DNA of 64,000 bases from a virus (taxonomy: Duplodnaviria; Heunggongvirae; Uroviricota; Caudoviricetes). The first letter of the stretch is position 1; every line of letters begins with the position of its first letter. The stretch is from the IMG/VR virus record IMGVR_UViG_3300035661_000015, positions 64,001 through 128,000 of that record. One strand, written 5' to 3'. The translations under genes were made by a program, and so were the position numbers. The notes below the pieces were generated by a model. It searched no databases. It was not told the origin of the DNA and saw only the letters and a program-made list of their open reading frames with translations. Positions 584 to 63,929 of this stretch are shown here, piece by piece.

Positions 584-723
584 AAATAAAACATATATGT
601 ATTCACTGTAGAAAAGAAATATTAAAGGATAGGTTCTTTTGTTCAGAAGAATGTGAATCTAGATTTAAAAATATCGTGGACGTAAAGCCCTTTGAAAAGG
701 CTAAACGTGAGCGGAGAAATTAA
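568..723 (+). CDS. Small Zn-ribbon protein (51 aa; CxxC...FCSxxC pattern)
   Basis: Hand translation MGDKLEIKHICIHCRKEILKDRFFCSEECESRF...; fills the gap before ORF 735. Confidence 0.55.
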   Translation: MGDKLEIKHICIHCRKEILKDRFFCSEECESRFKNIVDVKPFEKAKRERRN

Positions 724-734
724 ATGGGGGGCGT

Positions 735-1466
735 ATGACCAAGTTAGAAAAAGCGATGATGGCGGCTGTTAAGAAGGGTGATATCTTAAAGGCCCAACAG
801 ATCATGGAAAAAATCAACAAATCAATTGAGAGGGCAGCGGCGAAAGCGAAGAAACCGGCCCCTAAGAAAAAGCAGTCGTCTACAAAACAACAAATTATAA
901 AACAAGAGGCTAGGGTCCAGGAAAAGATCCAAAAGGACTTTGTTAAAAAAGAACGGGCCAAGGTTCTAAAGTCAAAGGGTAAATCTCCGGGAAGGCCCAA
1001 AAAGACAGTGGCCCCAAAACCCGTCGAAGAAATTCAGCCGGAACCCGAGGTCGCCCAAACTCCAAAAAAAACCACTAAGAAATTTTCGGACCCCTCGTTT
1101 ATGGCCCCAAGTCGAGATGTAAATAAAAAGAGGGGGGGTAAAAATTATGCCGAACCTACACCTATGGTTAATAAAAATCGTGATATAAAATTCATTGATT
1201 CGAGTGCCTCTTTGTTTACAAATAAGGATAAGCAAAATTTTAAAAAGGACGGGGAGATTGATAAGAAGTTGTGGGGCGACAATGAACCGGGTGAAAGGCG
1301 TGACCCCGTAAAGAAAATATCCGTAGTTTGCCGCGTTTGCCGCAAAAAATACATGGTTTTCCCTTCTCAAATTCCCCCGAACCTTGAGGGCGAATCGATT
1401 GGTTATGTGTGTTTAACATGCGTCCCTTCTAGTGATAGTTCGGCACTTGGAGAAGATGATGAGTAA
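735..1466 (+). CDS. Hypothetical Lys-rich protein with C-terminal CxxC...CxxC zinc ribbon
   Basis: 243-aa ORF; CRVC and CLTC motifs; overlaps the helicase start. Confidence 0.7.
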   Translation: MTKLEKAMMAAVKKGDILKAQQIMEKINKSIERAAAKAKKPAPKKKQSSTKQQIIKQEARVQEKIQKDFVKKERAKVLKSKGKSPGRPKKTVAPKPVEEIQPEPEVAQTPKKTTKKFSDPSFMAPSRDVNKKRGGKNYAEPTPMVNKNRDIKFIDSSASLFTNKDKQNFKKDGEIDKKLWGDNEPGERRDPVKKISVVCRVCRKKYMVFPSQIPPNLEGESIGYVCLTCVPSSDSSALGEDDE

Positions 1467-2916
1467 TTTTTCAGACGCCCCCTTAGAACGTGCCCTACTT
1501 GCCGGTATTATCAAAGGGGGTTTTGACTCATATGTAGATATATCAGACATTTTAGATATTTCAACCTTTACGGTTGACTCAAATCAGGCCATCTATCGGA
1601 TAATTAAAAATGTTTACGAGTCCGATAATGAGGCCCATCTAGATTTTCCGCTTATATTATCCAAAGCAAAAGACCTGGGGATTGCAGAATTCTTTCAGCA
1701 AAATGGAGAAAAAGAGTATTTAGAAAGAATTTTCTCTTTCCCCACTGATCCCAATAATGTTTTCAAATTCGCCGCTAAACTAAGAAAGACTCAGGTCGCC
1801 AAACTTCATTATGAAGAACATATTAAGGCGGCTAAACGGCTGGAAAACCTTACGGGTGCCGAAACCTATGAGGAAATTTTAACAATCTCGAATGGTGATA
1901 TTGAATCCCTGGTGGATAAATTAGATGGTGATAATAATACACCCATGATTTTATCGGAAGGTGTTGATGAATGGTTAGCAAATATTGAAAAGAATCCAGA
2001 TACTTTGCCAGGTATTTCCACCGGGTTTAAAAGGCTTGATTTAATTATAGGTGGTGGTTTACACATTCCTTCTGTTAATGTTGTGGTTGGACGCCCTGGT
2101 AGCGGGAAGACGCAATGGGGGGGTAACTTTGCAATTAATATTAGTTCAAGAGATCAGGACGTTTTGATACTAGACACAGAGATGGATGATACCCAATTAA
2201 AAAATAGAATTTTGGCTTATCTATCTAGAGAAACTTGTGATGATATTAAATTTGGACGAGTATTTAAAAATTCATTCAAAAAGAAGAGAGTCGCGGCGGC
2301 GGCTGAGAAATTTAAAAATCTACCGATTAGTTGGATGAGCGTTAAAGGTAAGCCTATTCAACAAACTATTCAAATTATTAAAAGGTGGAATGCTCGTAGA
2401 CCAAATAAGGATAAGCCCCCAGTTGTTATCTATGACTATATTAAAGTTATGTCTGAGGGGGAAATATCGAATAATAAATCAGAATCAATGATCTTGGGTA
2501 TCATTGCGACCGAATTACATAATTGTATGGCTAAAATTGGCGGTGCTTGTGTAACCTTTGCCCAAATGAATAGGTTGGGACTTAAGGGTCAAGATACGGA
2601 TGTTGTTTTCGGTAGCGATAAAATTCTACAGTATGTAGATACTTTGATGATGTATAAGGCTAAGGGTGAGGCGGATATTGATGGGGAAGATGAAGCGGTT
2701 GATTTAGAATCGGGCAGTCATAAATTATATTTTGCCAAGGTTCGTAATGGTGGCGGCGTCGATCCTAACGATTATCTCAATATTATCTTTGAAAAAGAAT
2801 ACGCCACTCTTAAAGAGGGTAAATTATTTAGTGAAATTAAAAAAGAAAAAAGGGAAAGAAAAAGGCGGGAGGCGGAAAATCAAGATGACGACGATGTTTC
2901 GTTTGACCCAAATTGA
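1456..2916 (+). CDS. dnaB: Replicative DNA helicase, DnaB family
   Basis: N-terminal LERALLAGI; Walker A GRPGSGKT; ILDTEM; Walker B IYDYI; AQMNR; KVRNG. Start moved from 1432 to ATG 1456. Confidence 0.92.
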   Translation: MMSNFSDAPLERALLAGIIKGGFDSYVDISDILDISTFTVDSNQAIYRIIKNVYESDNEAHLDFPLILSKAKDLGIAEFFQQNGEKEYLERIFSFPTDPNNVFKFAAKLRKTQVAKLHYEEHIKAAKRLENLTGAETYEEILTISNGDIESLVDKLDGDNNTPMILSEGVDEWLANIEKNPDTLPGISTGFKRLDLIIGGGLHIPSVNVVVGRPGSGKTQWGGNFAINISSRDQDVLILDTEMDDTQLKNRILAYLSRETCDDIKFGRVFKNSFKKKRVAAAAEKFKNLPISWMSVKGKPIQQTIQIIKRWNARRPNKDKPPVVIYDYIKVMSEGEISNNKSESMILGIIATELHNCMAKIGGACVTFAQMNRLGLKGQDTDVVFGSDKILQYVDTLMMYKAKGEADIDGEDEAVDLESGSHKLYFAKVRNGGGVDPNDYLNIIFEKEYATLKEGKLFSEIKKEKRERKRREAENQDDDDVSFDPN

Positions 2917-3000: not shown

Positions 3001-3279
3001 ATGATTCCTTACTTGGTTTTTACAGAAGGTAAAAGTATTATCTTTGGATACTATCATATGGATATTTGTGGTATTCCTACAGATCTAAAGCTTATTAGAG
3101 CTAGAATTGTAGCTTGGATAGATATAACTCTTGAAGAATGTACTATTTTAAGAGCATTTAAGGAAAGTACGAATATCGTCGCAACTAGACCTTTCGAGTA
3201 CATGATAGTAAAACCACAACTTATAATTAAAGTTCCCGAAGACCTTGTTGGTCGTTTTGAAAAAGAGTATGTTAAGTAA
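3001..3279 (+). CDS. Hypothetical protein
   Basis: 92-aa ORF preceded by GGAGG. Confidence 0.6.
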   Translation: MIPYLVFTEGKSIIFGYYHMDICGIPTDLKLIRARIVAWIDITLEECTILRAFKESTNIVATRPFEYMIVKPQLIIKVPEDLVGRFEKEYVK

Positions 3280-4384
3280 TCGGGCCTTCCAAGAAAAAAT
3301 CCGCCTTCTAAACGAATTTCTAGCCGAACATATTGAGGAATTATTAGATGAATTAGGTGTAGGTTATAGAAGGTCGGGCCAAGATTACATCCTCCATTGT
3401 CCTATTCATGGAGGAGATTCTTGGGCCACCACTATCTATAGTCAAGGATCAACTGTTCCTGGTTTTTGGAAATGTAGGACCGCCGGTTGTCATGACCACT
3501 TTGCTAAAAATTTAATTGGTTTTACTCGTGGCGTTATGTCGGCCAATAATGGTTGGTCAAAGCCTGGTGATAAAACTTATGGATTTAAAAATACGATAGA
3601 CTTTCTTTGCAGAGTTTTCAATATTGATTTCGATAAATATGAAGTTAATCTTGTGGCCCTGGATAAAAGGGACTTTATAAAGAGCGGAAGTGAGCGGAAG
3701 AAGTTAGGGGGGCGACCACTAGAGGAAGTTAGGGCGGCCCTCGACATTCCTTCACCCTACTTTTTGGGTCGTGGTATTCCTTGGCAAACCCTAATTAATT
3801 TTAATGTGGGTGAATGTATGAACCCCGATAAGAAAATGTTTCAGAGGGCGACGGTTCCGGTTCTTGATATTGAGGGCAAAATAGCGGTGGGCTCTACGGG
3901 GCGATCTATTTTTGAGAAGTGTCCCAAATGTAAGGGCTTTCATAATCCGGACGAGTATTGTTCTAAGGTGGCTAAATGGATAAATGCGGGTAAATTTGCG
4001 GACACCTATCTTTATAATTTGTGGAACGCGAAGGATAAAATTAAGGAAACCGGAGTTGCCGTACTCTGCGAAGGGCAGGCTGATGTTTGGGCCGCTTGGA
4101 GTGCTGGAATTAAAAATGTGGTCGGTATATTTGGCACCGAATTATCCCCCGGCCAAATGGCGACTTTAGAAGAGTTGGGCACTATGGGTCTAGTTTTATG
4201 TTTAGACAACGACGATGCCGGTAAAAGTGGAATCGCCCGAATAGTTGATAAGTACAGTAAGTTGTTTTACACAAACGCCCCTACATTTTCCGCTCATGAT
4301 TTGGGCGATATGAGTAGTGATAAAATAAAAGAGATAATTATTCCTGAGATTAATAGAATGGAGAAAAAGTGTTCGATTTCTTAA
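3245..4384 (+). CDS. dnaG: DNA primase, DnaG-like
   Basis: Zn-binding CPIHGG...CRTAGC; Toprim LCEGQADVW and LDNDDAG; DLGD; likely start ATG 3269. Confidence 0.9.
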   Translation: MLVVLKKSMLSNRAFQEKIRLLNEFLAEHIEELLDELGVGYRRSGQDYILHCPIHGGDSWATTIYSQGSTVPGFWKCRTAGCHDHFAKNLIGFTRGVMSANNGWSKPGDKTYGFKNTIDFLCRVFNIDFDKYEVNLVALDKRDFIKSGSERKKLGGRPLEEVRAALDIPSPYFLGRGIPWQTLINFNVGECMNPDKKMFQRATVPVLDIEGKIAVGSTGRSIFEKCPKCKGFHNPDEYCSKVAKWINAGKFADTYLYNLWNAKDKIKETGVAVLCEGQADVWAAWSAGIKNVVGIFGTELSPGQMATLEELGTMGLVLCLDNDDAGKSGIARIVDKYSKLFYTNAPTFSAHDLGDMSSDKIKEIIIPEINRMEKKCSIS

Positions 4385-5868: not shown

Positions 5869-5884
5869 ATAAGCGGAGAAAGTA

Positions 5885-5914
5885 GGGGTCGTGTAAAAGC
5901 GGCCCTTATTTTTT
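5885..5914 (+). terminator. Probable intrinsic terminator
   Basis: GGGTCG-loop-CGGCCC stem followed by TTATTTTTT. Confidence 0.55.
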
Positions 5915-5926
5915 AAAGGGGATCTT

Positions 5927-6100
5927 ATGGACTTTCGGGAAAGAAAAGCCGAGCGTACCGCATATTATAATAAATATGTAGAGGGTTGGAAAAAGAGAAA
6001 ATGTACGGCGTGTAATGGAAGTGGTTTTTATGACCATAACGGTTCTCCAAAATGTGGTTCCTGTAATGGAACGGGAAAAGAAAGGTATAAAGATGACTGA
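5927..6100 (+). CDS. Small DnaJ-type zinc-finger protein (57 aa), not in the ORF track
   Basis: CTACNGSG and CGSCNGTG (two CxxCxGxG motifs); GGGG RBS-like run upstream. Confidence 0.7.
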   Translation: MDFRERKAERTAYYNKYVEGWKKRKCTACNGSGFYDHNGSPKCGSCNGTGKERYKDD

Positions 6101-6404
6101 CTGTTCTGATCTTGAAGATGGTAGCTTATTAGAATCTGTCGAACTATTACCAAAAACCGATCCGCGTTTGGGTGAGCATCGTTATAAAGGATTAGATCCT
6201 AGTAAAAATAAAATTTTTGTAGATATGATCGACGATGATTTAGCTATTCAACTATATCGTGAAGAAATTACTACTGAAACTTATGGGTACTATAATAAGG
6301 ATGGACATAGGGTAATTGTAAGATCTAGTAAAAATTCTAATTATAGTCCAAGTATAAAAATCCCAGTTAATCAATTGCTATTAGAAGGAAATGAAAATGC
6401 CTGA
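6093..6404 (+). CDS. Hypothetical protein
   Basis: Part of ORF 6015..6404; ATG 6093 couples to the upstream stop. Confidence 0.55.
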   Translation: MTDCSDLEDGSLLESVELLPKTDPRLGEHRYKGLDPSKNKIFVDMIDDDLAIQLYREEITTETYGYYNKDGHRVIVRSSKNSNYSPSIKIPVNQLLLEGNENA

Positions 6405-6708
6405 AATTTTTAGTGATCCGATACCGCTATTAGCATCGATAGATGAAGCTGTCCGTCAGTCACTTTATAAACCGCCGCCCAAATTGCCCAAAAGATATTT
6501 AGTTTTCTTTTCAGACGTAGAATCTAAATTGGTTGGCTGGGACCATTTTTATATTGCCTTAGATGATATTGAAGAAGCGAAAGATATTTTGGAAAAATTA
6601 AAAACCACCTATTGTCAAAGTATGGATAGGTTAGGGTGTGGTTGCGAACATGGCGGACATATTGTTGACATTAATACGATGAAAATTGTTTACACTCTAG
6701 ACGAATGA
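6391..6708 (+). CDS. Hypothetical protein
   Basis: 105-aa ORF coupled to its neighbours. Confidence 0.55.
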   Translation: MKMPEIFSDPIPLLASIDEAVRQSLYKPPPKLPKRYLVFFSDVESKLVGWDHFYIALDDIEEAKDILEKLKTTYCQSMDRLGCGCEHGGHIVDINTMKIVYTLDE

Positions 6709-6914
6709 AAAAATATCTCGGCTGGTTTGCCAATGCCCTTCTGATTGTAGGGGCCATTTTAATTGGAGAGAAGTATAGGGTCGCTTTCCTCTTTACTTTT
6801 TTGGGCGAAGTCCTATGGACCATTCGACTCTTAAAAAGTCGCCAGTGGGACATGATAGCCATCTGCGTTATATTTGGCCTAATCGCCCTCAAGAATTTTA
6901 TTTTTTGGACATGA
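6705..6914 (+). CDS. Small membrane protein (about 3 TM; PnuC-like fragment possible)
   Basis: Three hydrophobic segments in 69 aa. Confidence 0.55.
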   Translation: MKKYLGWFANALLIVGAILIGEKYRVAFLFTFLGEVLWTIRLLKSRQWDMIAICVIFGLIALKNFIFWT

Positions 6915-6944
6915 TTATTACATTTTAATTAAGGATATACAAAA

Positions 6945-7328
6945 ATGAAAAAGATTATTTTTTCCGCAGTAGCTTTCGCCGCCATCACCCTAACTTCTTC
7001 CGCTCATGCCCAGGCCCCCGTTAGTGACCCTCAAACATTTTTAAATTGGGTCAACTCTTATCGTGCTTCTGCTGGTCTTCGTGCCGTAGGCTATGATCAA
7101 AATTTAGCAAATTGGGCTTATCAAAATAGTTGTCAGCAAGCTAGTCGTGGAATTGGACACTTTGTAATGGGTACAGCTAGACGACAAAATAGTGGTATGG
7201 GGGCTCTTAGTACAGTTTGTCATATGTGGACAACTTCACCCGCACATAGAGCGGCTCTACTTGATCCAACAATTAGTTTTGTCGGTATTGCGGGGGCCGG
7301 AATGTATTGGACTTATAATGCCTATTGA
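6945..7328 (+). CDS. Secreted CAP/SCP-domain protein
   Basis: Signal peptide ending AHA-Q; VNSYRASAGL, YDQNLANWA, GH, WTTSPAHRAALLDP, VGIA match CAP-domain signatures. Confidence 0.82.
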   Translation: MKKIIFSAVAFAAITLTSSAHAQAPVSDPQTFLNWVNSYRASAGLRAVGYDQNLANWAYQNSCQQASRGIGHFVMGTARRQNSGMGALSTVCHMWTTSPAHRAALLDPTISFVGIAGAGMYWTYNAY

Positions 7329-7470: not shown

Positions 7471-7743
7471 GTGGAAACTTTTTCAATTTATGGCGTATGT
7501 GACTACTTGAATGACTTGCTAGATCTTGATAGGTCTTCAATTTCAGAGATTTTTACTAATCAGATTTTGGTAAATGCAGAATTAGAAAATGTAATTATTG
7601 TAAACCAAGATGGTAAGACTGGACCACTTGGTATTCTTAATGGCCTTTTTATTAATTCGGAAAACGTAATCGTAAAGAACTATGATGAGGAAACGGGTAT
7701 TGTGTCCAGTTTTTCAATTCAGCCAAAGTTGAAATTCGCCTAA
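7471..7743 (+). CDS. Hypothetical protein
   Basis: 90-aa ORF; GGGG upstream; stop overlaps the next ATG. Confidence 0.55.
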   Translation: METFSIYGVCDYLNDLLDLDRSSISEIFTNQILVNAELENVIIVNQDGKTGPLGILNGLFINSENVIVKNYDEETGIVSSFSIQPKLKFA

Positions 7744-8750
7744 TGTTTATAACCTACTTAAGATCATCTAGCTACAACGCGTATTCAGAGTGTCAGCAAA
7801 AATACTATCTGAATTATGTTTTAAATATCCCTTCGACCAGCAATAAACGTGCGGCGATTGGTAATTGCTTTCATAAGGCCGCTGAAATCTTAGCACAGAA
7901 AAAATTAATGGAACAAGATGGGGTGACTTCTTACGAAGATGATCTTGGGACCGTTTTCCTTTCTGATATCACTATTGACTTTGCTATTGAGAGCGGGTAC
8001 AATCATTACGTAAAGCTTGAACCGGACTGGGACTGGAATGAGAGGTCCGATAAGAAGGAACTTTATAAGTGGATGGACCAGCTACTCAATAGTTGGTTTG
8101 AAAACTATTCGCCCCTAACCTCTAATATAATTGCCCCCGAAAAGAAGTTTGACTTCGTTATCGAAAAAGATTGGGCAAAGTACGTGTACAATATTAGCGG
8201 AGAACAAGTGGTGGGGCATCTTGGAATCAAGGGCACTTCTGACTTGGTTCGGGATTTGGGTGACGGGACTATCGAGGTTGTAGACTATAAGACGGGCAAA
8301 ACCCGCAACGACTGGATTACGGGCGAAGAGAAGAATTATAAATCTTTCTGCAAAGACCCCCAACTCCTCTTGTACTATTATGCCATGAAGAACACATATC
8401 CTGACGCCAAGGATATTATTATGACCATTATTTATATGGAAGCTGGTGGTCCTTTCTCCGTCCCTATCGGTGATTTAAAAATTCCCCAGATTGAAGACAT
8501 GTTAAAGACGCGGTTCAAGGAAATTAAAGAGAATCAGCGGCCCACCCTAAATAAATCTTGGAAGTGTGCCAAGTTCTGTCACTATGGAAAGAATATCCAA
8601 CCGGGATCAACTGACACGATCTGTAAGTTCTTCGCTGACAAAGTTCGTAAAGATGGCGTGAATAAGACGTTTGAAAACTATGGGGATTTAAATAAATTAA
8701 CATCCTATCAAGATGGTGGCGGAAGAAAGGCGAAAAAATCAGATGGATAA
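7743..8750 (+). CDS. PD-(D/E)XK nuclease, Cas4/RecB-like
   Basis: RSSSYNAYSECQQKY; GNCFH; GTSDLV; VVDYKTG; QLLLY; C-terminal CAKFC..C cysteine cluster. Confidence 0.85.
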   Translation: MFITYLRSSSYNAYSECQQKYYLNYVLNIPSTSNKRAAIGNCFHKAAEILAQKKLMEQDGVTSYEDDLGTVFLSDITIDFAIESGYNHYVKLEPDWDWNERSDKKELYKWMDQLLNSWFENYSPLTSNIIAPEKKFDFVIEKDWAKYVYNISGEQVVGHLGIKGTSDLVRDLGDGTIEVVDYKTGKTRNDWITGEEKNYKSFCKDPQLLLYYYAMKNTYPDAKDIIMTIIYMEAGGPFSVPIGDLKIPQIEDMLKTRFKEIKENQRPTLNKSWKCAKFCHYGKNIQPGSTDTICKFFADKVRKDGVNKTFENYGDLNKLTSYQDGGGRKAKKSDG

Positions 8751-8999: not shown

Positions 9000-9818
9000 A
9001 TCGGTTACGCAAAAATTGAAAACCTTTACAGAGCAAATCATCTATTAGAATGTTATGCTCTTGAGAAAATTCACGGACAATCAGCGTGGATTTATTGGAG
9101 GCCGGACCATATAACTATTCATCCGGAAATTGAAAAATGTGTTCCGAGCAAGTCGGAATTAGCGGAGAAATTTAAAAGGGCGATTGTGGGCGAACCACAA
9201 AAGGTCGACGTTTTTGGCGAACAGTTTGGGGGCAAACTTCAAGGAATGTCGGCGGTCTACGGTAAAGAGACCCGCTTTATGGTCTTCGAGGTTTGTATTG
9301 ATGGCGAATTTTTAAGTGTGCCAGATGCCGAAGAATTTGCCCTTGCCCTTGGATTAAGATTTGTGCCCTATGAAAGAGGCCCCCTAACAAAAGAATTTTT
9401 AGATCAAGAGCGGGACCGCCCATCCTTGGTAGCCATTGTACCGGACGCTATTCGAGAAGGGGTCGTAGTTCATCCCATTTACGAGGCCAAATTTAATAAT
9501 GGGGGCCGCTGGATCTTTAAACATAAGCACGAAAAATTCCGCGAAACCTCTACGCAAAAAGAGCTTAGTCCGGACAAATTAGCTGTTTTGACTGAGGCTA
9601 ATGAAATCGCCCAAGAGTGGGTTACGCCCATGCGATTAAATCACGTTCTACAAAAAACCCCCTTTACTTCTTCCGCTGATATTGGTACAATCATTATTGC
9701 AATGATCGAAGATGTTCGATTGGAGTCAGAGGGCGAAGTTGTTTGGTCGAAAATTGTCGCTTCGGCTATTGGTAAAAGAACAGCAGAATTACTAAAAACA
9801 TATCAGGTGGCCCCATGA
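9000..9818 (+). CDS. RNA ligase (Rnl2-like nucleotidyltransferase), start proposed at ATC 9000
   Basis: Motif I EKIHG lies upstream of the track start at 9186 in the same stop-free frame; GEQFG, FEV, REGVVV, FKHK follow; GAGG 8 nt before the ATC. Confidence 0.75.
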   Translation: MGYAKIENLYRANHLLECYALEKIHGQSAWIYWRPDHITIHPEIEKCVPSKSELAEKFKRAIVGEPQKVDVFGEQFGGKLQGMSAVYGKETRFMVFEVCIDGEFLSVPDAEEFALALGLRFVPYERGPLTKEFLDQERDRPSLVAIVPDAIREGVVVHPIYEAKFNNGGRWIFKHKHEKFRETSTQKELSPDKLAVLTEANEIAQEWVTPMRLNHVLQKTPFTSSADIGTIIIAMIEDVRLESEGEVVWSKIVASAIGKRTAELLKTYQVAP

Positions 9819-10917: not shown

Positions 10918-10921
<4 letters not shown>

Positions 10922-12852: not shown

Positions 12853-12864
12853 GCGGAGAAATAT

Positions 12865-48946: not shown

Positions 48947-48947
48947 A

Positions 48948-48975: not shown

Positions 48976-48991
48976 TATTTTCTCAGCTAAA

Positions 48992-53125: not shown

Positions 53126-53261
53126 AGTACCTCCAAAAATAAAAGGGCGGGCGTCGAACACTCGCCGCCGCCCCAATAAAAATGTTTGAAAGCATGAGCG
53201 GAGAAAGTAAAGGATTAGGGCGATTTTAAGGCCGCCCCTACCTATTTCTCCGCTTATCTTC

Positions 53262-56216: not shown

Positions 56217-56510
56217 TTAGTCCTTTCTGAAAAAAGAACTTAAGTCTTTCTTTAGGTTGGTTTTATTATCTCTAGAGGCGGATAGAGTTTTTATACCGTC
56301 ATTAATAACTGTTGCGTAAATCGTTTGTGTCTTAGTAGTGTCACCAACCTTTTCACTTGAATTTAAACTAACCGAAACTTCTTCTTCGTCACTACCATAC
56401 TCTTTATACCTATAGGCCGAGACGCTATAAAGATTGGGAACTTCCGCACCATCGATAGTAGCTGAAAGAGTCTCCGCCTTAGTGTCTATGGTCACGACAA
56501 TTAATGCCAT
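56217..56510 (-). CDS. Hypothetical protein
   Basis: 97-aa coupled ORF. Confidence 0.55.
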   Translation of the reverse strand: MALIVVTIDTKAETLSATIDGAEVPNLYSVSAYRYKEYGSDEEEVSVSLNSSEKVGDTTKTQTIYATVINDGIKTLSASRDNKTNLKKDLSSFFRKD

Positions 56511-58627
56511 TATTCTTCTCCCGTTTTTATAATAGAATAAATCAAACCTTGTAAGTTAGAACTATCTTTAAATTCTTCTGTATAGTTAGATAATAAGCAC
56601 TGATCAAAAATTGTGTCAGCAATAGAAGTATCTTTAAGTAAAATACACTTAAGTGATTCGGACGTAATCTCTTGACTGTCAATATTCATTAAAGATGCGA
56701 ATATCATCTTTTCGCAATTAATTTTACCTTCTTGGGAACCGAGTGTGCCCATTTTCTCATAAGCGGAGAAAAGTATAGGGGCGATTTTGTTATATTTCTC
56801 GCGTCCCTCGTACATCGCATCGATGAAAGCCTTCGACGTTTGGGGCTTGACATTTTTGGGCGGTCTCTTTGAACTATCCTTGCTATTTACGGGGCGACCT
56901 TGGCCGGACCTACCAACGGGCTTATTTAAATCTTCACTCCTCACCTTTTGAAGATCAAGTAAGGAAACTTCGCCGGGAGCACGTTCATTTAGTTCAAGAC
57001 CAGCCTCACTTGGGGTAATCTGGCCATTTTGAAGGGCAATTTTAGTAAGGGTAAGTTGGGGATTTGCGTCAGGATAGGCACCGGCTTTTGGTGCAAACCT
57101 ACCATCGACTTGGCCCCTATACTCTCTCTTTGCCCTACTCGCTTCGATATCTGGCAATAGGCCGAACCTTTCCTGTAGGGTTTCAACACTAATTATATTT
57201 CTATCTACCAACTGAATCCAAAGGGCTTTTTCGGCGGATTCATCAGAAAGTGACATATAATCAAAAACGATCTGGGCGGGCGTAGGAATCCCCATAGCTT
57301 TAGAGAAAAGTTCAATTTCCTTTTCCCAAAAACGTGTTAGGGCGTCCCGGCCATACTTAAGTCTTTCTAATAGGGTTTTGGTAGAAATAAAATTATTAGT
57401 TAATCCGCCCCCAGATTTTCCCGCTAACGACGGCGGTACACCTAGTCCGGAAAAAATCATAGACTTACATTCCTGGTATTTTTCACTACCAAGGAATTGG
57501 TGACCGTCCGACTCAGTTTCAACTAAGCTAATAGCGTCGTTCCAAACAATGTCGGTAACGCCCCCAGGAACCTGATTCATTAAAAGATCATTAAAAGCTG
57601 AAAGCAATCCGGCGGTTGGGGCAATTTTATGTTCTAAGCTACCTAGTTTCCAAACGCGAACTTTAGAGATAGCACCATCTAGGGCCGAAGCGTCAGCCAT
57701 AACCATTTTGTTATATTGTATGATCGAATCAATAATAGGGGCGGTCATCGGATAGGCAAAAATCTGCCAATCATCTTTTTTATAGAAGTGAATGCCGAAC
57801 TTATCGGGCGGCAATTCAATCATATTTTTCTTTTCATTAATATTGTCGGCAGAGAAAGGTGGGAGGGATTGTTTAATATGGATTTCTTGGGCGGTCTTAG
57901 GATTGAGTAGGGCTTTTTTAATTGACCCACTAATTCTAATACCGTAACGAATTCTACCAATAGACAATTCTAAATCTTCTCCGATTGGTTCAATGACGAG
58001 CGGATTAAGAAAAGTATAAATCCAAGGTATCTCTCTTTTTTCTAGACTTTCACCCTGAGGAATACCTTGCAAGTCGGCATTAGCTTTTTGAGTATACATT
58101 TTCTTAACATCGGTCGGCTTTAGCTTAGCTGTTGTTCTATAAAAGGGAACTTGGCCCGCTTTATAAAATAAGTTAAGAAATCTCTCACTACGCTCTTTAC
58201 CATTAACTTTCTTAAACCAATACTTAAAGATCTTCTCATGTCTTTTTGTTTTATGAACTAGGCGAATCCCTTGACTGCCTAGCTCACTCATCATATCAAT
58301 AACTTCATGTACGATCGGATTCTTATCATAGGCCGCCATACAAGCCGAAACCATACCTTTAATATAGGTTGGTGTAGCTTCGTTTGGCCGAAACCAATCC
58401 CTATCCTCTGATGTAAATGCGTCCCTAATAGAGACATTAGGAAGAATATTTTTAAAACGAAGGTTTGATTCAAGAACTCGTTTTTGATTACCGTCAGCAT
58501 CGTCTAAATATCTATCAAATTGGTCGGCCACCTGACTCATAATAGTCTTACGATCAGCATCATTGTCCCACGTTAACAATTCCGCCCTATCTCTTTGACC
58601 CGACATAACTTGTATTTTGTTATTCAT
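56510..58627 (-). CDS. Portal protein
   Basis: 705 aa directly after terminase; PIVHEVIDMM; helical; GVPPSL motif. Confidence 0.75.
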   Translation of the reverse strand: MNNKIQVMSGQRDRAELLTWDNDADRKTIMSQVADQFDRYLDDADGNQKRVLESNLRFKNILPNVSIRDAFTSEDRDWFRPNEATPTYIKGMVSACMAAYDKNPIVHEVIDMMSELGSQGIRLVHKTKRHEKIFKYWFKKVNGKERSERFLNLFYKAGQVPFYRTTAKLKPTDVKKMYTQKANADLQGIPQGESLEKREIPWIYTFLNPLVIEPIGEDLELSIGRIRYGIRISGSIKKALLNPKTAQEIHIKQSLPPFSADNINEKKNMIELPPDKFGIHFYKKDDWQIFAYPMTAPIIDSIIQYNKMVMADASALDGAISKVRVWKLGSLEHKIAPTAGLLSAFNDLLMNQVPGGVTDIVWNDAISLVETESDGHQFLGSEKYQECKSMIFSGLGVPPSLAGKSGGGLTNNFISTKTLLERLKYGRDALTRFWEKEIELFSKAMGIPTPAQIVFDYMSLSDESAEKALWIQLVDRNIISVETLQERFGLLPDIEASRAKREYRGQVDGRFAPKAGAYPDANPQLTLTKIALQNGQITPSEAGLELNERAPGEVSLLDLQKVRSEDLNKPVGRSGQGRPVNSKDSSKRPPKNVKPQTSKAFIDAMYEGREKYNKIAPILFSAYEKMGTLGSQEGKINCEKMIFASLMNIDSQEITSESLKCILLKDTSIADTIFDQCLLSNYTEEFKDSSNLQGLIYSIIKTGEE

Positions 58628-58713
58628 TTATAAAAATCCTTATGGATATAGGTAACAGGCATAGTATTAAATACACCCCGGATATAAGCGGAGAAAGTAA
58701 AGGGTTGGGGCGA

Positions 58714-60837
58714 TTACCTTTTATAAATGGTTGGGATGGCCGCCCCTCTAAACCAGTCGGGGCAAGACGAATACATTTCGCCCCCTTTACTTTTCTCGCT
58801 CATATGCCCAAGAATACCGCCGATTGCCAAATCATTTTTGGGCTCATTAAATCGCGTAAGTCTACGGGCGGCATAGTTCGCCATAATAATGGCCGAGTAG
58901 CGGTCTTTCTTCATACGACCCTTTTTCATATCGGGCGTTTTTGTTTCGGGCGTATCCCAGTGTTCTTTACCAGTCTTTTCAGTCCTTGTAACAACAATCG
59001 ATGCCAATTCGGTTTTAATTTCCTGAATTTCAATAGAGCATTCTTCAAGGGTGTCAAATTCACGCTTATTTAAGTTATCATCTTCACATGCGACAGACAT
59101 TGTGATTGGGTCAACATAGGGAAAAAGAATAGCCTTGTCTTCAAGGTCTTTTCTCATCGCATTGTTACTCATGGTCATATATTCAGATTGACCGAACTGG
59201 ACCATCTCAACGATATGTTTGCCCGGCATATCATCTTCCGGCTTTTCTTTTGCCGTACCAAAAATATGATCTTTATTAATTTCCCAAATAGGTACTTCAC
59301 CGACCTTTAATTTGTCTTTGTCGTGTAACGCCTCAAGAATACTTTTACCGCCGCCCTGGCTATCCATAGAAATTAATTCAATATCAAATTTCTGCATAAG
59401 GGTTCTAATTTTACGGGCGACATAACTATTATATTCGTTCTCTTCGACAAGACCTTTGGTGACTTGCTCTTTGTGCTTTTTAAGATTGGTGGTCCAACAA
59501 TAAACGACACGCCGATGGTCCGGATGGACTTCTAATACGACAAGGGCCAAATTATCTTGAGACATAGCGGGGTCAATACCCATAACATATTTGCAACCAT
59601 GAGTACCCTTAAGCATCGGATTAAATTGAACCGGGCCGGATGGTAATTGGATGGGCTCATTACAAGTGCAACTATGAATAAGTGACATCTTAAAGAAGCC
59701 GTTTGAATCTTTACTAAATACCGCGTTATACTCGTTACCGAATAGGTTTTCGGGCAATGAGAGTTTTGAGCGTGATATGTTAACCATGTCCATGAATCCC
59801 TCTGGGAACAAGTAATAGGGGACGCGAATAACGGCGTAGTGCTCCCAATTAAAATTCTCCTCGACTTGGCCCCTACCAAAAATACTCTCTAACTTTTCCG
59901 GATCGCCCTCGGTATTTATAATATCAGTATACTTTTTAAAATACTTGGAGAAATGGCCGAAGTCATAATCAGCCGTACCTAGAATAATTGATTGGTTGGG
60001 GCGTTTGGCGAATTTATGGACCTCTTCCTGTTCGGGCGTCCATAGGCCCCTTTCCTTAAGGAATCTTCTTTTTGCCGAATCGACCACATTCTGATAGGGG
60101 TCACTTGAGGTTGCACCGAACCCCTGAATAACTTCCTCATAAATCTGGGGGTTCTGACTCTGAAATTCGTCCGCAATAACAATATTCGCACGGAAACCAC
60201 GAATCTTTTTACCGTCACCAATAGGAATAGCCGAAGCTTCCGATCGCCCAATTGTCATGGTCCATCTATCATTATACTTTTTAATTCCGGAACTAGGATC
60301 ATTGCCGATCAAGTCTTTAAGAATAGGAGACGAGTTATACATCTTCTCCATATATTCAAAGATAAGACGTGACTGACGGAAACCAACGCCCACCATAATC
60401 ACCTTTGTTCCCTGATACAATAGGAGCATAAGAATAATGTATAGGGCGATTGTGAAAGTTTTAGATCCACCACGACAAGCAATAACTAGCGGGAAGGGGT
60501 GCTCAAACATGACCTTTAACCAAAGGGCCTGAAACGGCAAAACATTAATGCCGAAGAAGTATTTTGCGGCGAATGGAAAATAATCGGGGTCTCTCAAAAG
60601 CCTAAGTAAATCTTTACCTGGGTCTTCTCCGAAATTAATATATTCTTTTAGGGGGTTTTTCGAGTCCCTTAAAAGTTGCATTGTCTCTTCAAAGCCAATA
60701 CCATAGGTGGCCAAACACGACGCATAATATTCTATATCATTACTCTGATCATCTACCTTAAAGATTCGGCCATACTTAGCCTCTTTCCTATCCTTAACCT
60801 TGATGTAGTAATTTTTATGACCCTTGGCTTTATTCAT
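58714..60837 (-). CDS. terL: Terminase large subunit
   Basis: PFQ; Walker A ACRGGSKT; IRGFRANIVIADEFQ; RNase H-like GIDPA, DSQGGG, KDRYSA. Confidence 0.9.
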   Translation of the reverse strand: MNKAKGHKNYYIKVKDRKEAKYGRIFKVDDQSNDIEYYASCLATYGIGFEETMQLLRDSKNPLKEYINFGEDPGKDLLRLLRDPDYFPFAAKYFFGINVLPFQALWLKVMFEHPFPLVIACRGGSKTFTIALYIILMLLLYQGTKVIMVGVGFRQSRLIFEYMEKMYNSSPILKDLIGNDPSSGIKKYNDRWTMTIGRSEASAIPIGDGKKIRGFRANIVIADEFQSQNPQIYEEVIQGFGATSSDPYQNVVDSAKRRFLKERGLWTPEQEEVHKFAKRPNQSIILGTADYDFGHFSKYFKKYTDIINTEGDPEKLESIFGRGQVEENFNWEHYAVIRVPYYLFPEGFMDMVNISRSKLSLPENLFGNEYNAVFSKDSNGFFKMSLIHSCTCNEPIQLPSGPVQFNPMLKGTHGCKYVMGIDPAMSQDNLALVVLEVHPDHRRVVYCWTTNLKKHKEQVTKGLVEENEYNSYVARKIRTLMQKFDIELISMDSQGGGKSILEALHDKDKLKVGEVPIWEINKDHIFGTAKEKPEDDMPGKHIVEMVQFGQSEYMTMSNNAMRKDLEDKAILFPYVDPITMSVACEDDNLNKREFDTLEECSIEIQEIKTELASIVVTRTEKTGKEHWDTPETKTPDMKKGRMKKDRYSAIIMANYAARRLTRFNEPKNDLAIGGILGHMSEKSKGGEMYSSCPDWFRGAAIPTIYKR

Positions 60838-61300
60838 TTCTACCCTCTAGTATTTTGCCCATCTTCTTAAAAATTATCTTACAGATATTTCTACCATTTC
60901 CTTCAGCCAGTATAATTTTTGTTTTATAATTTATATGGTAGTCATAAAGGGTACTCTCGATAAACTTAGCCGATACCTGTAAATCTTTCCACTTATTTTC
61001 GGGGATACCACTATCAGCGGGAAAATTAAGGATGTCGTCTATAGAGAAGTCCAAAATTAAAAAGGGCCACCTGAATTTCTCTAGTCGTTCTAACTCTCTT
61101 TTAAAGCGGGCCTGAGTTATATTCTGGGCAAATTCGCCCGTATTCTTTTTCCGCTCAATAACGAACTCCCCCTCAAGACCCTCTATGGTATAGTCGCCCG
61201 TACTGAGAGTTCTTATTTCGGTGCCCCAACAATCACTGTCCATCTCCCAGTGCCAACTCCCCTCCCTCTCCCTCGTGTCCTTTATTATCTTGTATTTCAT
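60830..61300 (-). CDS. ERCC4/XPF-family nuclease
   Basis: DTRE; LSTGDY; IERK; ELERL. Confidence 0.82.
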   Translation of the reverse strand: MKYKIIKDTREREGSWHWEMDSDCWGTEIRTLSTGDYTIEGLEGEFVIERKKNTGEFAQNITQARFKRELERLEKFRWPFLILDFSIDDILNFPADSGIPENKWKDLQVSAKFIESTLYDYHINYKTKIILAEGNGRNICKIIFKKMGKILEGRNE

Positions 61301-61652
61301 CTGGTTTCTTTCCGTATTTAATTAAAAGAATGTTTGTGGGCGAGCCGGTCCTTTTTATATTTGCAAGAACCTTGGACATGAAAAGAGGCTCAAAAGATTC
61401 CTCTTTTCCGTTAACCCTTCTAGAGTGACATGACACACACAGGACGACCCCATTATTAATGTCGTATCTAAGATATTCAAAGTTCGCCCACCTTTTTATG
61501 TGATGAACGTGGAACTTGGTCCGAACCAAATTTTTGTCACATAGCTGACACCGCTTGCCATCTCTGGCTACAACCGCGTTACGCCACTTCCAATATAATT
61601 CATCATCAAGTTCTCTGGGGTTTTTCCAGACCTTCTTACGCCTTTTTGCCAT
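61233..61652 (-). CDS. HNH endonuclease
   Basis: WRNAVVARDGKRCQLC; HVHHI; NGVVLCVSCH. Confidence 0.88.
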   Translation of the reverse strand: MAKRRKKVWKNPRELDDELYWKWRNAVVARDGKRCQLCDKNLVRTKFHVHHIKRWANFEYLRYDINNGVVLCVSCHSRRVNGKEESFEPLFMSKVLANIKRTGSPTNILLIKYGKKPDEIQDNKGHEGEGGELALGDGQ

Positions 61653-62568
61653 TTTTCACCGTCTTCGATGTAAGAATTGGTCGTCCCCATTCACCGTCCG
61701 AGTACTGGTGTTCGGCCCCAAGCATTTCCTCTTGTTTTTTAACAGCCGCCTTAACCAGTTTCATAGAATCGCCCTCACGCCTCTTAACATCTTCCTCACC
61801 AAGTTCTACAATGAGGCCGATGTAACTCTGTCTCTTACTGTTTTCCAGCTTAGAAATACGCTGGTCTCTGGTCGATTTCAAACTCTTCCTAATGTCTAAC
61901 ATCTTTTCTGAATTATTTTTATATTCGATTCCGGAAGACTGTTGGCATGAGCGGAGAATGTTAAGTTGGTTTTCTAGTTGCTGAATCATATTAATACTAT
62001 CTTCGCGATTCTTATCATTGATATTAGCCAAGAGCTTATCAATCTCTTTATGGATATTATCCATTTGGGACAAGACCCGCCGCTTCTCTTTTAAATTTCT
62101 ATGCAGAAGAACGTGGTACTTAACAAGGTCGAAAACCGAACTCTCTTCAATCATATTAATATCTTCGAGGGTACTCATGATTTTGCCGTACTCGTGCTCG
62201 AAAATAAAAAACTCGTCGGGCATTAGTTCCTGGGTAATCTGTTTCCACTCGGGCCGCTTTTTTAATTCAATAACAGCCCGCTGTATTTCAATCGAGTCCT
62301 GTACAATATCATCACCCAATAGAAGCTCTTTTTGACGCACATTCCTAATATTGGTTTCGTGCCGATTCATTTGGGCCGCTATTTCAATATCATCAAAGCC
62401 CAGTTGAAAAAGCCGTATAAGTTCTTCCCTTTCAGCCTTACTCATTGGGCCGGACTTTTTATAAGAACCATTTTTTATAGCCACTTCCTTGGCCGCCGCC
62501 TTAGTCGCCGCCTTAGCCTTACGATGTTCCTTAAGAATGTCGTGCCCACTCTTTTCTACTTTAGCCAT
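61636..62568 (-). CDS. HTH plus coiled-coil protein, terminase small subunit candidate
   Basis: DIEIAAQMNR HTH-like; long coiled coil; near terL. Confidence 0.45.
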   Translation of the reverse strand: MAKVEKSGHDILKEHRKAKAATKAAAKEVAIKNGSYKKSGPMSKAEREELIRLFQLGFDDIEIAAQMNRHETNIRNVRQKELLLGDDIVQDSIEIQRAVIELKKRPEWKQITQELMPDEFFIFEHEYGKIMSTLEDINMIEESSVFDLVKYHVLLHRNLKEKRRVLSQMDNIHKEIDKLLANINDKNREDSINMIQQLENQLNILRSCQQSSGIEYKNNSEKMLDIRKSLKSTRDQRISKLENSKRQSYIGLIVELGEEDVKRREGDSMKLVKAAVKKQEEMLGAEHQYSDGEWGRPILTSKTVKNGKKA

Positions 62569-63223
62569 TTAAAAAATCCTCCAAACTCTCGAACCTCCCA
62601 TCCTCAATTATAATTTTCTTTACGGCCCCCCTAACCTCTTCTTTTACAGTCGTCGGCACCGAAACGCCCGCAACCATTCTTAGAAAATGAGAACGAAGAT
62701 TGGCTGAAAGTTTATAGTCGATGATGTCGATAAGATCGTCACGTTCAGTTAATTCGTCGGTGTAAAAAACCTGATCTTCAACACCTGGATCAAAAATACT
62801 TTGAGGGGAGTTAATAGATTGCTTTGAGTCATTTTTAATCTTCCAAATTCTGTATAATTCGCAATTGTCCTTCTCGTCGAAAGATAAACAGCCACTATTC
62901 GATCTCTTAAATTTTTTATCAAAAGATGAGCATCCAACACAGGGCTTTTCACAGCGGGCCGTATTGTCGCGTTGAAAGTTTCTTAGGCGATTATTCAAGT
63001 GGACAAAGAGAATATTTTCAAGGGGGCGTTTGCCGTCGTACTTACCGCCACGTAAAAAGGTGAGGGCAATGATATGGGCCTCTTGGGTCAAATCTTCGGC
63101 TGAGTGAAAACTGAATTGATATTTGGGGCCAAGATAAGCCATTACTTTTTCGACCATCTCGTAGAAGGCTTGTTCGGTCGTATTTGCACTTTTGTAATGA
63201 TCACTCATTTTTAGGGGCTCCAT
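62561..63223 (-). CDS. Sigma70-like transcription factor with Cys-rich insert
   Basis: AEDLTQEA..., YDGKRPLENILF.HL.NRLRNF (region 2 pattern); heads the structural operon. Confidence 0.65.
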   Translation of the reverse strand: MEPLKMSDHYKSANTTEQAFYEMVEKVMAYLGPKYQFSFHSAEDLTQEAHIIALTFLRGGKYDGKRPLENILFVHLNNRLRNFQRDNTARCEKPCVGCSSFDKKFKRSNSGCLSFDEKDNCELYRIWKIKNDSKQSINSPQSIFDPGVEDQVFYTDELTERDDLIDIIDYKLSANLRSHFLRMVAGVSVPTTVKEEVRGAVKKIIIEDGRFESLEDFLNG

Positions 63224-63371
63224 CTTCGTTATCGACTAGGGTACGAAACCGGGCGAATTCATTTTTAATTTCGGTTTCAGTTGTGGTGGTTTTATTTAGG
63301 TCCGATGCTACTAAGGTTTTAGCTTTTTCCGTAGGGGCTAACAAAACCTCTTTTATTTTTATATTTGACAT
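63201..63371 (-). CDS. Small hypothetical protein (56 aa)
   Basis: ATG at 63371 within ORF 63201..63521. Confidence 0.35.
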   Translation of the reverse strand: MSNIKIKEVLLAPTEKAKTLVASDLNKTTTTETEIKNEFARFRTLVDNEDGAPKNE

Positions 63372-63929
63372 ACTTGAGTACTCCAATAGTTGGTAAGTGG
63401 TTAACACTACTATATATATACCCCGCAATACAGTTAGTGGTTCAAATTGATAAGCGGAGAAAGTTAGGTGTGGATTTATTACGATAGATATGACTAGAAA
63501 GACTGATACTTTATGTATCAAATTCTTAGGGGTGAAACTGATTAGTTTGTCGCAGAACTTTTTCGGAGATATAAGATGGGATTATTAGCGGAGAAATATA
63601 GGTGGGGTCAATAGATGTAGAATTACTAGAAACCCTGTTACTTTAAGCAACAAGGTTTTAGGGGCGACTTCGGAATTGTCGTTGGGCGAAATTAACGAAG
63701 GCCCCCTTATTTCTCCGCTCATGAATTTTCTTCAAAAGGGTGAGGCCACTAGCTTTGAAGGGCGAAAGCCCGATATGAGAAGATTGGGTAGGACAAACTG
63801 TAGAGGGACGAGTCACGGGATATTAGAACAAGAATTGACATACGACTAAAACATAAAGTTCATAATCACTAGCACATTCATTTTGGTCAGGGCTTGATCT
63901 TGAATGCTAAGACCTAAATTCCTTTTTTC

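Follow-up and report, generated by a model that had tools for sequence, protein, structure and literature searches.

An asymmetric DNA element forms inward-facing pairs at evenly spaced stations across the genome of an uncultured phage

An asymmetric element of about 25 bp, present in some 80–90 copies once variant cores are counted, is dispersed over the 128.9-kb record of an uncultured phage and is maintained by selection that acts directly on the DNA. Its copies lie in inward-facing pairs and form evenly spaced stations that follow neither the direction nor the borders of genes. The record contains 52 exact cores (AGCGGAGAAA) and none of the reversed control word. In the 64,000-nucleotide stretch analysed here (the window), 23 exact cores were found, 17 on the plus and 6 on the minus strand, each in the place given by an earlier note on this DNA, and the expectation of about 0.1 copies offered there agrees with dinucleotide-preserving shuffles, which averaged 0.11 copies and never exceeded 1. 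The full site reads R-T-D-AGCGGAGAAA, then an AT-rich spacer of 2–7 nt and GGGG(C)G(A), and one of its strands is strongly purine-rich. T stands at position −2 in all 52 exact copies and C at −1 in none; the best-kept block is GCGGA, and the A-G-C is invariant. A G-run tail (GGGG or GGGCG within 16 nt, past the AT-rich spacer) follows 18 of the 23 window cores, as had been said of most of them. A weight-matrix scan of the record returned 92 sites of at least 12 bits, compared with 13 in the reversed-sequence control. The near matches that had been listed at 3693, 4285 (minus), 8196 (AGCGGAGAAC), 26058 (minus), 52020 (minus; AGCGGAAAGT) and 61950 are real variants; the one at 48126, which has no T at −2, is doubtful.

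Exact copies within genes number 29, whereas 200 synonymous-codon shuffles of every called ORF of the record averaged 0.70, with at most 3 in any one. In the portal gene, which holds an exact plus copy at 56762 and a variant minus copy at 57416 (AGCGGGAAAA; pair 56762–57425), the segments SLAGKSGGG and PILFSAY correspond to TLTGMA..GGG and PAILSHY in 20–28 homologues, with no insertion at the copies. The exact plus copy at 31584–31593 in the GDP-L-fucose synthase gene encodes LAEK in a conserved segment that likewise aligns without gaps (LAEKVKGLVGYEG vs LALTVARIVGYEG in the solved structure 7ll6). These gapless alignments indicate that the copies arose by substitution and not by insertion and, together with the codon shuffle, bear out the proposal that it is the nucleic acid, not the protein, that is constrained. 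Sense copies within ORFs do occur in all three frames, as had been noted, although the copy at 9161, cited as an example, lies just outside the called ORFs. The same alignments largely refute a reading of the copies as terminal inverted repeats of a MITE- or REPIN-like mobile element, or as recombination sites of invertible segments, which we regard as barely credible: inverted pairs of a 25-bp repeat would suit it, as would smallest units of only 41–60 bp and pairs that enclose a tRNA gene in one case and an HNH domain in another, but the interiors of pairs are unrelated in sequence and in length, the record (from which about 17% of the genome is missing) yielded neither a Y1 transposase (RAYT) nor a tyrosine or serine recombinase, and the motif turned up in no other viral contig.

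Among neighbouring copies no more than 1,500 bp apart, 23 gaps are inward-facing (plus, then minus) and 6 outward-facing, a result reached in none of 20,000 permutations of the strand labels. Partners lie 31–1,400 bp apart. Pairs and solo copies together make 58 stations about 2.2 kb apart, and their spacing is more even than chance (CV 0.63 vs 0.97 for random placement, 0 of 5,000) and runs across every functional module; on single strands the mean gap is 2.4 kb (plus) and 3.2 kb (minus). The plus-strand excess emphasized in the earlier note is numerically right for exact window cores (two-sided binomial ∼0.035), but is lost once variant copies are counted, as many minus partners carry variant cores (1643, 6995, 9668, 46225, 48979, 57416 and 58791). 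The balance of strands is 30:22 for exact cores in the record and, for weight-matrix sites, 52:40 in the record and 26:20 in the window, so that the one-strand polarity of Chi or KOPS that had been suggested gives way to plus/minus pairs.

The pairs of the window lie both in and between genes. An exact plus copy at 710–719, 15 nt 5′ of the ATG at 735, faces a weak minus variant at 1643–1652 (AGCGGAAAAT, 13.1 bits) in dnaB (1432–2916), and the DnaG-type Toprim primase gene (3245–4384) holds a variant pair at 3693–4294 (plus AGCGGAAGAA at 3693, minus AGCGGAAAAT at 4285) with a GGGGCG tail on both members. Further pairs combine an exact plus copy at 5872, which is intergenic, with a minus variant at 6995 (AGCGGAAGAA; 5872–7004), and one at 9161, 15 nt 5′ of the RNA-ligase ORF, with a minus variant at 9668 within that ORF (9161–9677). 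The first PolIII-alpha ORF contains a variant pair (11187–11737), and the intein/HNH part of the second an exact one (14696–15205). The stop of the PolIII-alpha N-terminal ORF is overlapped by a solo exact plus copy at 12852–12861, whose GGAG is placed like a Shine-Dalgarno sequence, 3 nt ahead of the exonuclease gene's ATG. Exact pairs follow at 16850–17129 (plus copy intergenic after ssb, minus copy in the next ORF) and at 23584–23748, 155 bp apart and both in one 266-aa ORF; the exact plus copy at 22487–22496, in a GT1 glycosyltransferase gene, has no G-run tail. A variant pair lies at 25901–26067 (plus AGCGGAAAAT at 25901, minus AGCGGGGAAA at 26058), an exception to the pairing rule at 27330–27663, where a minus variant at 27330 and a plus variant at 27654 face outward, and a solo plus variant at 33156–33165 (AGCGGAAAAT, 18.5 bits).

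Further along, the exact plus copy at 38132–38141 is antisense in a 688-aa structural ORF, and its sole candidate partner is weak (39280, 11 bits). The tape-measure gene contains a variant pair (39916–40419), and the gap upstream of it holds the smallest unit, an exact plus copy at 46194 and a minus variant at 46225, 31 bp apart (46194–46234). A solo exact minus copy at 46816–46825 is sense in a 266-aa ORF. The tRNA gene at 48872–48946 (minus strand) is enclosed by an exact plus copy at 48767 and a minus variant at 48979 (AGCTGAGAAA; 48767–48988), and an exact pair 48 bp apart (53197–53254) separates the structural ORFs 52601–53176 and 53262–54281. The pair across the TerL/portal junction (58687–58800) consists of an exact plus copy and a minus variant at 58791 (AGCGAGAAAA), which encodes MSEKSKGGE at the C-terminus of TerL. 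The ERCC4-type nuclease gene has a variant pair (61016–61155), and the HTH/TerS-like ORF a solo plus copy with one mismatch at 61950–61959 (AGCGGAGAAT). Upstream of the structural operon, a non-coding region carries a cluster of five exact copies: plus at 63453 and 63587, minus at 63710 (63453–63719) and, past the window, two more on the minus strand at record positions 128176 and 128434.

This cluster, together with the finding that 23 of the 52 exact copies lie wholly or partly in the 8.4% of the record outside called ORFs (p=5e-12), would fit operator or roadblock sites, dispersed over the genome, for a DNA-binding protein of the phage, either a stoperator-like regulator or a nucleoid organizer. 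Two protomers bound in opposite orientation might then block or loop the DNA at each station, and the product of ORF 735–1466, a lysine-rich orphan with a C-terminal zinc ribbon, encoded beside dnaB and flanked by a pair, could be taken for such a protein. We consider this reading, in both its parts, possible though rather unlikely. Dispersed asymmetric repressor sites have a precedent in the stoperators of cluster A mycobacteriophages (L5, Bxb1), which are likewise lineage-specific and occur as tens of asymmetric sites longer than 12 bp. However, stoperators all point the same way with respect to transcription, lie mostly between genes and are found in temperate phages whose repressor is known, whereas the sites here are paired and evenly spaced, 50 are sense and 42 antisense, and two thirds (62 of 92) lie in ORFs. 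Gene starts are enclosed by pairs no more often than chance (14 vs 15.1 expected), and gene regulation does not predict an even spacing over every module. Moreover, no integrase or serine recombinase was found in the 129 kb. The element differs from L5 stoperators, as had been claimed, and also from every other described element that could be tested.

Orientation also bears on a promoter for the phage's sigma-like factor, in which the core would be a long −10-like element, the DNA would melt at the spacer and transcription would start at the G run, so that inward-facing pairs would give sense and antisense transcripts; all of this we judge unlikely. The layout of a conserved element, an AT-rich stretch and a purine start at a flexible 2–7 nt fits, as does the sigma-like gene itself, which has Sigma70_r2 hits in relatives and comes first in the structural operon of all of them. 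Sense copies precede the portal gene, the tape-measure gene, the tRNA and the operon start, and some copies, judged by eye, come after terminator-like hairpins. Yet nearly half of the sites are antisense and score no lower than the sense ones (21.5 vs 19.7 bits), and several copies precede a start codon by 3–8 nt, so that transcripts begun at their G run would start within the ORF. Copies are not aligned with the genes that they would serve, exact copies in the structural module being mostly antisense; ordinary TTGACA-17-TAAAAT promoters are also present; and no such word accompanies the sigma-like gene in two relatives (G001 and G002). A search of the phage for PF00940 gave no hit, though the positive control also gave none.

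With GGAG in the core and CUCC in its complement, paired copies could in principle form stems in RNA or single-stranded DNA that serve as terminators, processing sites or clamps that sequester ribosome-binding sites, and hairpins can form from the two closest pairs (46194/46225 and 53197/53245) and from two pairs located in the record's first half. We nonetheless hold this reading to be very improbable. The tails and spacers of partner copies resemble each other no more than do those of partners drawn at random and show no covariation (p=0.87), most pairs are 100–1,400 nt apart, and gene starts are not enclosed above chance. Terminator-like sites are at chance level (17 vs 16.5 expected) and seldom coincide with copies, and a search against Rfam found nothing except tRNA. 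As the tails do not covary, each copy is probably read singly; we infer a reader that acts on the DNA, has lineage-specific specificity and is in all likelihood phage-encoded. As first proposed, a signal at many sites, recognized by some factor, is still the best general reading.

The distribution among relatives is patchy. Three phages at 46–55% TerL identity carry related dialects (AGCGGGGAA, AGCAAGAGAA and AGCAGAGGAG) built on T-N-AGC and a purine run. L178 (7 kb) has six copies of aTT-AGCGGGGAA, L179 (22 kb) has 28 T-D-AGCAARRR sites, AGCAAGAGAAGTATAGGGGCG among them, and in L180 T-N-AGCAGAGGAG is followed by GGGG. Pairing is seen in only one of the three, L179, with inward-facing gaps of 184–347 bp (p=0.03). 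A fourth relative has a dissimilar G-rich word, and other relatives show none. In particular, no comparable word was found in G001 and G002, which stand at a similar TerL distance and have the same sigma-like, TerS-like, HNH and ERCC4 genes; the family thus has the trait only patchily or can dispense with it. For the same reason, the two proteins put forward as candidate readers are not singled out here: ORF 61636–62568 does have an HTH-like N-terminal consensus, and ORF 62561–63223 is sigma-like by alignment and by the Sigma70_r2 hits, but both occur in relatives without a comparable word. The long form gave only two single hits in 185,579 species genomes and is no repeat of any host genome among them. 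By these sequence comparisons the word is private to the phage lineage.

A word so long that hosts lack it could act as a Chi-like mark of self, which stops a degrading or translocating enzyme from either direction while host DNA without the word is destroyed. The core begins with AGCGG, the Chi of Bacillus subtilis, copies occur in both orientations at regular intervals, the word differs between lineages, and the phage encodes RecA and a PD-(D/E)XK exonuclease. We think this reading quite unlikely, as the 129-kb record holds no RecBCD/AddAB-type, UvrD-type, ResIII or RecD-like helicase above the cut-off, only a weak P-loop hit, and the inward order of pairs would be left unexplained. Chi and KOPS are also oriented words read by a moving enzyme; however, they are 5–8 nt long, strand-skewed with respect to replication and common in host DNA, and the present word has none of these traits. 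The uptake words of Neisseriaceae (DUS) and Pasteurellaceae (USS) resemble the element in being over-represented 10–12-bp words with an AT-rich flank, in all frames, about once per 1–2 kb and often in inverted pairs. They are, however, a property of the host genome read by the competence machinery, whereas the word here is that of the phage and, in its long form, near-absent from the 185,579 species genomes; its pairs reach 1.4 kb in span and are no terminators. Head-to-head asymmetric sites with flexible spacing are used in twos by Type ISP and Type III restriction enzymes and, in the form of inverted initiator sites, at origins of archaea and yeast. The likeness is one of working principle only; the record revealed no enzyme or initiator of such a kind, and we know of no precedent for some 35–40 such stations per genome.

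With low confidence, we favour the reading that the copies are strand-specific start sites, for a primer or a nick, used by the phage's own replication or recombination machinery, which includes DnaB, the DnaG-type primase, SSB, PolIII-alpha and RecA. At each copy, a primer would be laid by the primase with the DnaB helicase, or a nick would be made. Initiation by DnaG-type primases takes place at a template trinucleotide, the 3′ base of which stays uncopied; for T4 gp61 this trinucleotide is 5′-GCT-3′, the complement of the invariant AGC. If GCT is the template here as well, GCGGA would be the first five bases of the primer. The spacing of stations resembles the length of Okazaki fragments. 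The T7 genome is about 40 kb, the basis of the site spacing given next. The T7 primase is reported to select about 26 strong sites, some one per 1.5 kb, by a bipartite template signal (PMC12839067), a likeness to the present element, but those sites show a loose preference and are unpaired, whereas here an exact 10-mer is repeated in pairs. Nick words are known from T5 (R/GCGCRGG), from tf and Rembedalsseter (WACTRTGAC) and from phiKMV; they are 9–19 bp long, lie inside and outside genes, are enriched within a group of related phages and differ little between its lineages (PMC3517423, PMC11780129). All described ones are on one strand only (PMC3517423, PMC11780129), with 4–14 copies, whereas the present word is on both strands, in inward pairs and far more numerous.

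Several observations sit uneasily with start sites. Lagging-strand priming alone leaves the inward-facing pairing unexplained, nicks on opposite strands 31–50 bp apart would make the DNA fragile, the share of exact copies outside called ORFs also fits a regulatory site, and the trait is absent from G001 and G002. To our knowledge, no primase needs an exact word of 10–25 nt. Should the copies nevertheless be strand-specific start sites, facing starts, one per strand, would make a two-way start station every 2–3 kb, and these stations may serve lagging-strand priming or recombination-dependent restart.

Exact copies of the 10-base core AGCGGAGAAA number 23 in the window, 17 on the plus and 6 on the minus strand as counted in the earlier note, against 0.11 in dinucleotide-preserving shuffles. 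The whole 128,912-bp IMG/VR phage record (G000; estimated completeness 83%) holds 52 copies (30 plus, 22 minus), and the reversed-word control gave none. Alignment of all 52 exact copies yielded a consensus reaching beyond the core: position -2 is T in 52/52 copies, -1 is A, G or T and never C, -3 is mostly a purine, and +10 is G or T. After the core come an AT-rich spacer of 2-7 nt and a G run, typically GGGGCGA. Variant cores with the same flanks also occur, namely AGCGGAAAAT, AGCGGAAGAA, AGCGGGAAAA and some whose last bases are AAT or AAG. A weight matrix returned 92 sites in the record at a threshold of at least 12 bits and 79 at 14 bits, compared with 13 and 5, respectively, in the reversed sequence, indicating roughly 80-90 real sites, or about one per 1.5 kb. 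A second over-represented word, GGCGGCAT/ATGCCGCC, was set aside, as it derives almost wholly from minisatellite genes at 0.4-2.7 kb of the record, outside the window.

The earlier note had argued that the constraint acts on the nucleic acid and not on the protein, and three lines of evidence bear this out. When synonymous codons were shuffled in every called ORF, intragenic exact copies averaged 0.70 (maximum 3) against 29 observed; sense copies fall in all three reading frames; and homologous proteins align without gaps across the copies. In the portal gene (56510-58627, minus strand), two copies encode SLAGKSGGG and PILFSAY, which align insertion-free to TLTGMA..GGG and PAILSHY in 20-28 homologues. 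The copy in the GDP-L-fucose synthase gene (30802-31791, plus strand) encodes LAEKVKGLVGYEG, in gapless alignment to LALTVARIVGYEG of the solved enzyme 7ll6. Judging by such alignments, the word arose in pre-existing coding sequence by substitution. In genes for portal, terminase, polymerase and sugar enzymes it prevails over codon choice, and selection on it is as strong as on Chi, KOPS, uptake sequences, stoperators or nick motifs. Wholly or partly outside called ORFs lie 23/52 exact copies, while ORFs make up 92% of the record (P = 5e-12), and a few copies also serve as Shine-Dalgarno sequences 3-8 nt upstream of a start codon.

The reading as a polar, Chi- or KOPS-like signal biased to one strand did not hold. 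The plus:minus ratio is 30:22 among exact copies in the record and 26:20 (hand count) among weight-matrix sites in the window, and the copies are arranged in inward-facing pairs instead. The 17:6 bias belongs only to the window's exact cores, as minus-strand partners are often variant: for seemingly solo plus copies, a minus partner with a variant core lies some hundreds of bases further downstream (710/1643, 5872/6995, 9161/9668, 46194/46225, 48767/48979, 56762/57416 and 58687/58791). Among neighbours at most 1500 bp apart, 23 gaps are inward-facing versus 6 outward-facing, a result reached by 0/20000 permutations of strand labels. In a 72-site set, inward-facing gaps range from 31 bp up, 23/24 being at most about 1 kb, and the median outward-facing gap is close to 2 kb. 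With pairs merged, the record comprises 58 stations (inward-facing pairs or solo copies) with a mean gap of 2.2 kb, and these are more evenly spaced than chance (CV 0.63 versus 0.97 for random placement; 0/5000 randomisations). Spacing per strand is 2.4-3.2 kb. An apparent switch in strand quality, with better minus copies in the record's first half and better plus copies in its second, was not significant (exact plus:minus counts 13:14 versus 17:8). One pair, 48767/48979, contains a tRNA gene (48872-48946, minus strand; Rfam RF00005, 47.7 bits) that stands by itself in a 461-bp gap within the structural module.

Placement is independent of genes. Relative to them, 50 sites are sense and 42 antisense, the scores of the latter being no lower than those of the former. 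Gene starts or ends fall inside pairs no more often than inside random intervals, so a role as brackets of gene junctions was rejected. As the orientation of the copies bears no relation to transcription, they are not conventional promoters or stoperators; operator or roadblock sites, and promoters for the phage's sigma-like factor, are rival readings that we hold unlikely. Canonical TTGACA-17-TAAAAT promoters occur separately from the motif. Two such near-consensus promoters lie in 41-nt arms that are 83% complementary (48608-48648, plus; 63924-63964, minus) and point toward each other over the head module, the left one reading, if used, antisense to the structural genes. Nor do the copies act as hairpins or RNA stems: partners resembled each other in spacer and tail no more than randomly chosen partners did, terminator-like structures occurred only at chance frequency, and a tRNA was the sole match in an Rfam search. 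The copies are not the ends of mobile elements: they did not arise by insertion, and searches of the record for a Y1 transposase, a tyrosine recombinase and a serine recombinase found none of them.

Nor is the motif a host repeat. Its 19-base form was found in 0 other viral contigs and gave 2 single chance matches in 185,579 species genomes, and a loose 14-base pattern gave only single chance hits among the viral-contig matches listed. The inverted-pair pattern matched 3 contigs, all without T at -2 and without the G tail; those designated G007 and G008 are unrelated phages with no blastn match, G008 giving one short tblastx match.

The phage stretch is present in 4 DNA sequencing runs (microbial mat and sediment metagenomes), and the same look-up listed no RNA runs. 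Genes in the window lie on the plus strand until ~34.4 kb, comprising replication genes and a glycosylation island with several glycosyltransferases besides GDP-L-fucose synthase, and thereafter on the minus strand as the structural module. The replication genes, on the plus strand, encode DnaB (1432-2916), a DnaG-type Toprim primase (3245-4384), a PD-(D/E)XK exonuclease (7743-8750), SSB (16371-16838) and PolIII-alpha in two ORFs (10918-12852 and 13526-16099), between which lies an RNase T-family exonuclease gene (12865-13545); the second PolIII-alpha ORF contains an HNH-bearing intein (Intein_splicing match, residues 265-479). RecA is encoded in the first half of the record, outside the window. 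Just upstream of dnaB, a 243-aa lysine-rich orphan (735-1466, plus strand) ends in a CxxC...CxxC zinc ribbon and is largely disordered (low-confidence structure model, pLDDT 59); with one weak homologue among 5.8 billion proteins searched, it may be a lineage-specific DNA-binding protein. Elsewhere in the first half, a 651-aa protein (record 14737-16692) has a weak, sub-threshold match to GHKL ATPases (HATPase_c_3) and is followed by a 342-aa ORF of no assigned family; a nearby 821-aa minus-strand ORF had no Pfam match. The structural module includes, on the minus strand, the tape-measure protein (39724-46095) and TerL (58714-60837), upstream of which lie genes for an ERCC4 nuclease (60830-61300), an HNH endonuclease (61233-61652), a 310-aa protein with an HTH-like N-terminus and a 220-aa sigma-like protein. 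By alignment, the sigma-like protein (62561-63223, minus strand) combines motifs resembling sigma region 2 with a Cys-rich insert and a short tail resembling region 4. Next to it, the 310-aa protein (61636-62568, minus strand; N-terminal HTH-like consensus SD.EIA.QLNRP) may be the small terminase.

The right contig end is non-coding and repeat-rich (window 63380-64000 and record 128000-128912, together L172:1400-2912, a right-end stretch of the record). It holds two 132-134-bp and two 258-261-bp modules, each with a motif copy, as well as AATTAAAATT words and two repeats present three times each, one of 21 nt and one of 35 nt; the contig stops on the 35-nt repeat. This region could be regulatory or an origin, and it is the likely cause of the assembly break.

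Among 5.8 billion proteins, the nearest TerL is 55% identical, with hundreds of others at about 45-48%. The roughly 800 TerL relatives include contigs of 178 kb (SRR12901018_673), 177 kb (Ga0616348_0000017) and 213 kb (SRR20363618_45115). Relatives retain the gene order between the sigma-like and portal genes, and in all relatives examined the sigma-like and 310-aa HTH-like genes head the structural operon. Several relatives carry their own version of the word. L178 (55% TerL identity) has aTT-AGCGGGGAA in 6 copies over 7 kb. L179 (48%) has 28 T-D-AGCAARRR sites in 22 kb versus 3 in the control, one copy being AGCAAGAGAAGTATAGGGGCG, and 8/9 of its inward-facing gaps fall within 184-347 bp (P = 0.03). 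L180 (46%) has about 5 copies of T-N-AGCAGAGGAG followed by GGGG. These three related dialects share the skeleton T-N-AGC plus a purine run. The placement of stations is kept only approximately: copies near the terL 3' end in G000 and L179 lie ~15 codons apart. The 22-kb L181 (47%; GC 55%) carries a G-rich, dissimilar GAGGGGCAGGGGGAG in 13 copies on both strands, and the palindrome ATATGCATAT six times; both may be dispersed words peculiar to that lineage. No clear word was seen in L182 (46%), and no comparable one in G001 (73 kb) or G002 (40 kb), relatives at a similar distance that keep the sigma-like, TerS-like, HNH and ERCC4 genes. A portal query of IMG/VR and JGI metagenomes returned relatives only at ~40% identity, all without the word. 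Since the sigma-like, TerS-like, HNH and ERCC4 genes occur in relatives with and without the word, their presence does not inform on its reader. A 15-mer of G002 ending in GACGAGCGG, first thought related, is a separate one-strand repeat with ~1-kb spacing. In G002, GGGTAAGACGAGCGG occurs seven times on one strand at ~1-kb spacing, with a hairpin-like stretch after each (L146:277-9166). In G001 (L148-L151), TGCTGGTG, made up of seven of the eight bases in E. coli Chi, was counted 18 times against 2.3 expected, always on the same strand; this excess may simply stem from Ala-Gly coding in a gene array that runs one way.

A DNA-level, lineage-specific signal, with individually recognisable copies on both strands in inward-facing pairs, even and gene-independent, points to a whole-genome physical process rather than gene control, and suggests that the reader is directional, as only orientation-dependent events tell inward- from outward-facing pairs. 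The reading we tentatively favour, and hold possible rather than probable, is that the copies are strand-specific starts for the phage's own DNA machinery, which would lay a primer or make a nick at each. The phage encodes a DnaG-type primase, DnaB, SSB, PolIII and RecA, and the per-strand spacing resembles Okazaki-fragment length. In addition, AGC, which is invariant in the motif, has as its complement GCT, a template trinucleotide of T4-type primases. T7 primase is reported to use ~26 strong sites chosen via a bipartite template signal (PMC12839067), and nick-associated words of other phages, like the motif, lie inside genes and vary between lineages (PMC3517423, PMC11780129). However, the nick words known from phages occupy one strand only, unlike the motif, which counts against such starts. 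The absence of the word from some relatives also does, and we know of no primase needing so long an exact word.

A Chi-like mark of self DNA is an unlikely rival of such starts. We likewise consider unlikely a phage-private address system, in which a long word absent from hosts would mark the phage's own DNA and set start or stop points for a phage machine that works directionally, be it a primase-helicase loader, a nickase or a nuclease. Selection would then set the word in even, inward-facing pairs genome-wide, conserved genes included, and the dialects AGCGGAGAAA, AGCGGGGAA, AGCAAGAGAA and AGCAGAGGAG would keep one phage's machinery from working with the DNA of its relatives. From each of Chi, KOPS, uptake sequences, stoperators and nick motifs a directional DNA-reading machine came to light, but the motif, being phage-private, on both strands, in facing pairs, evenly spaced and split into dialects, fits none of them. 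If its reader is the phage replication or nicking machinery, as in the strand-specific starts favoured here, this would be a sequence-addressed start of DNA synthesis, not described in phages.
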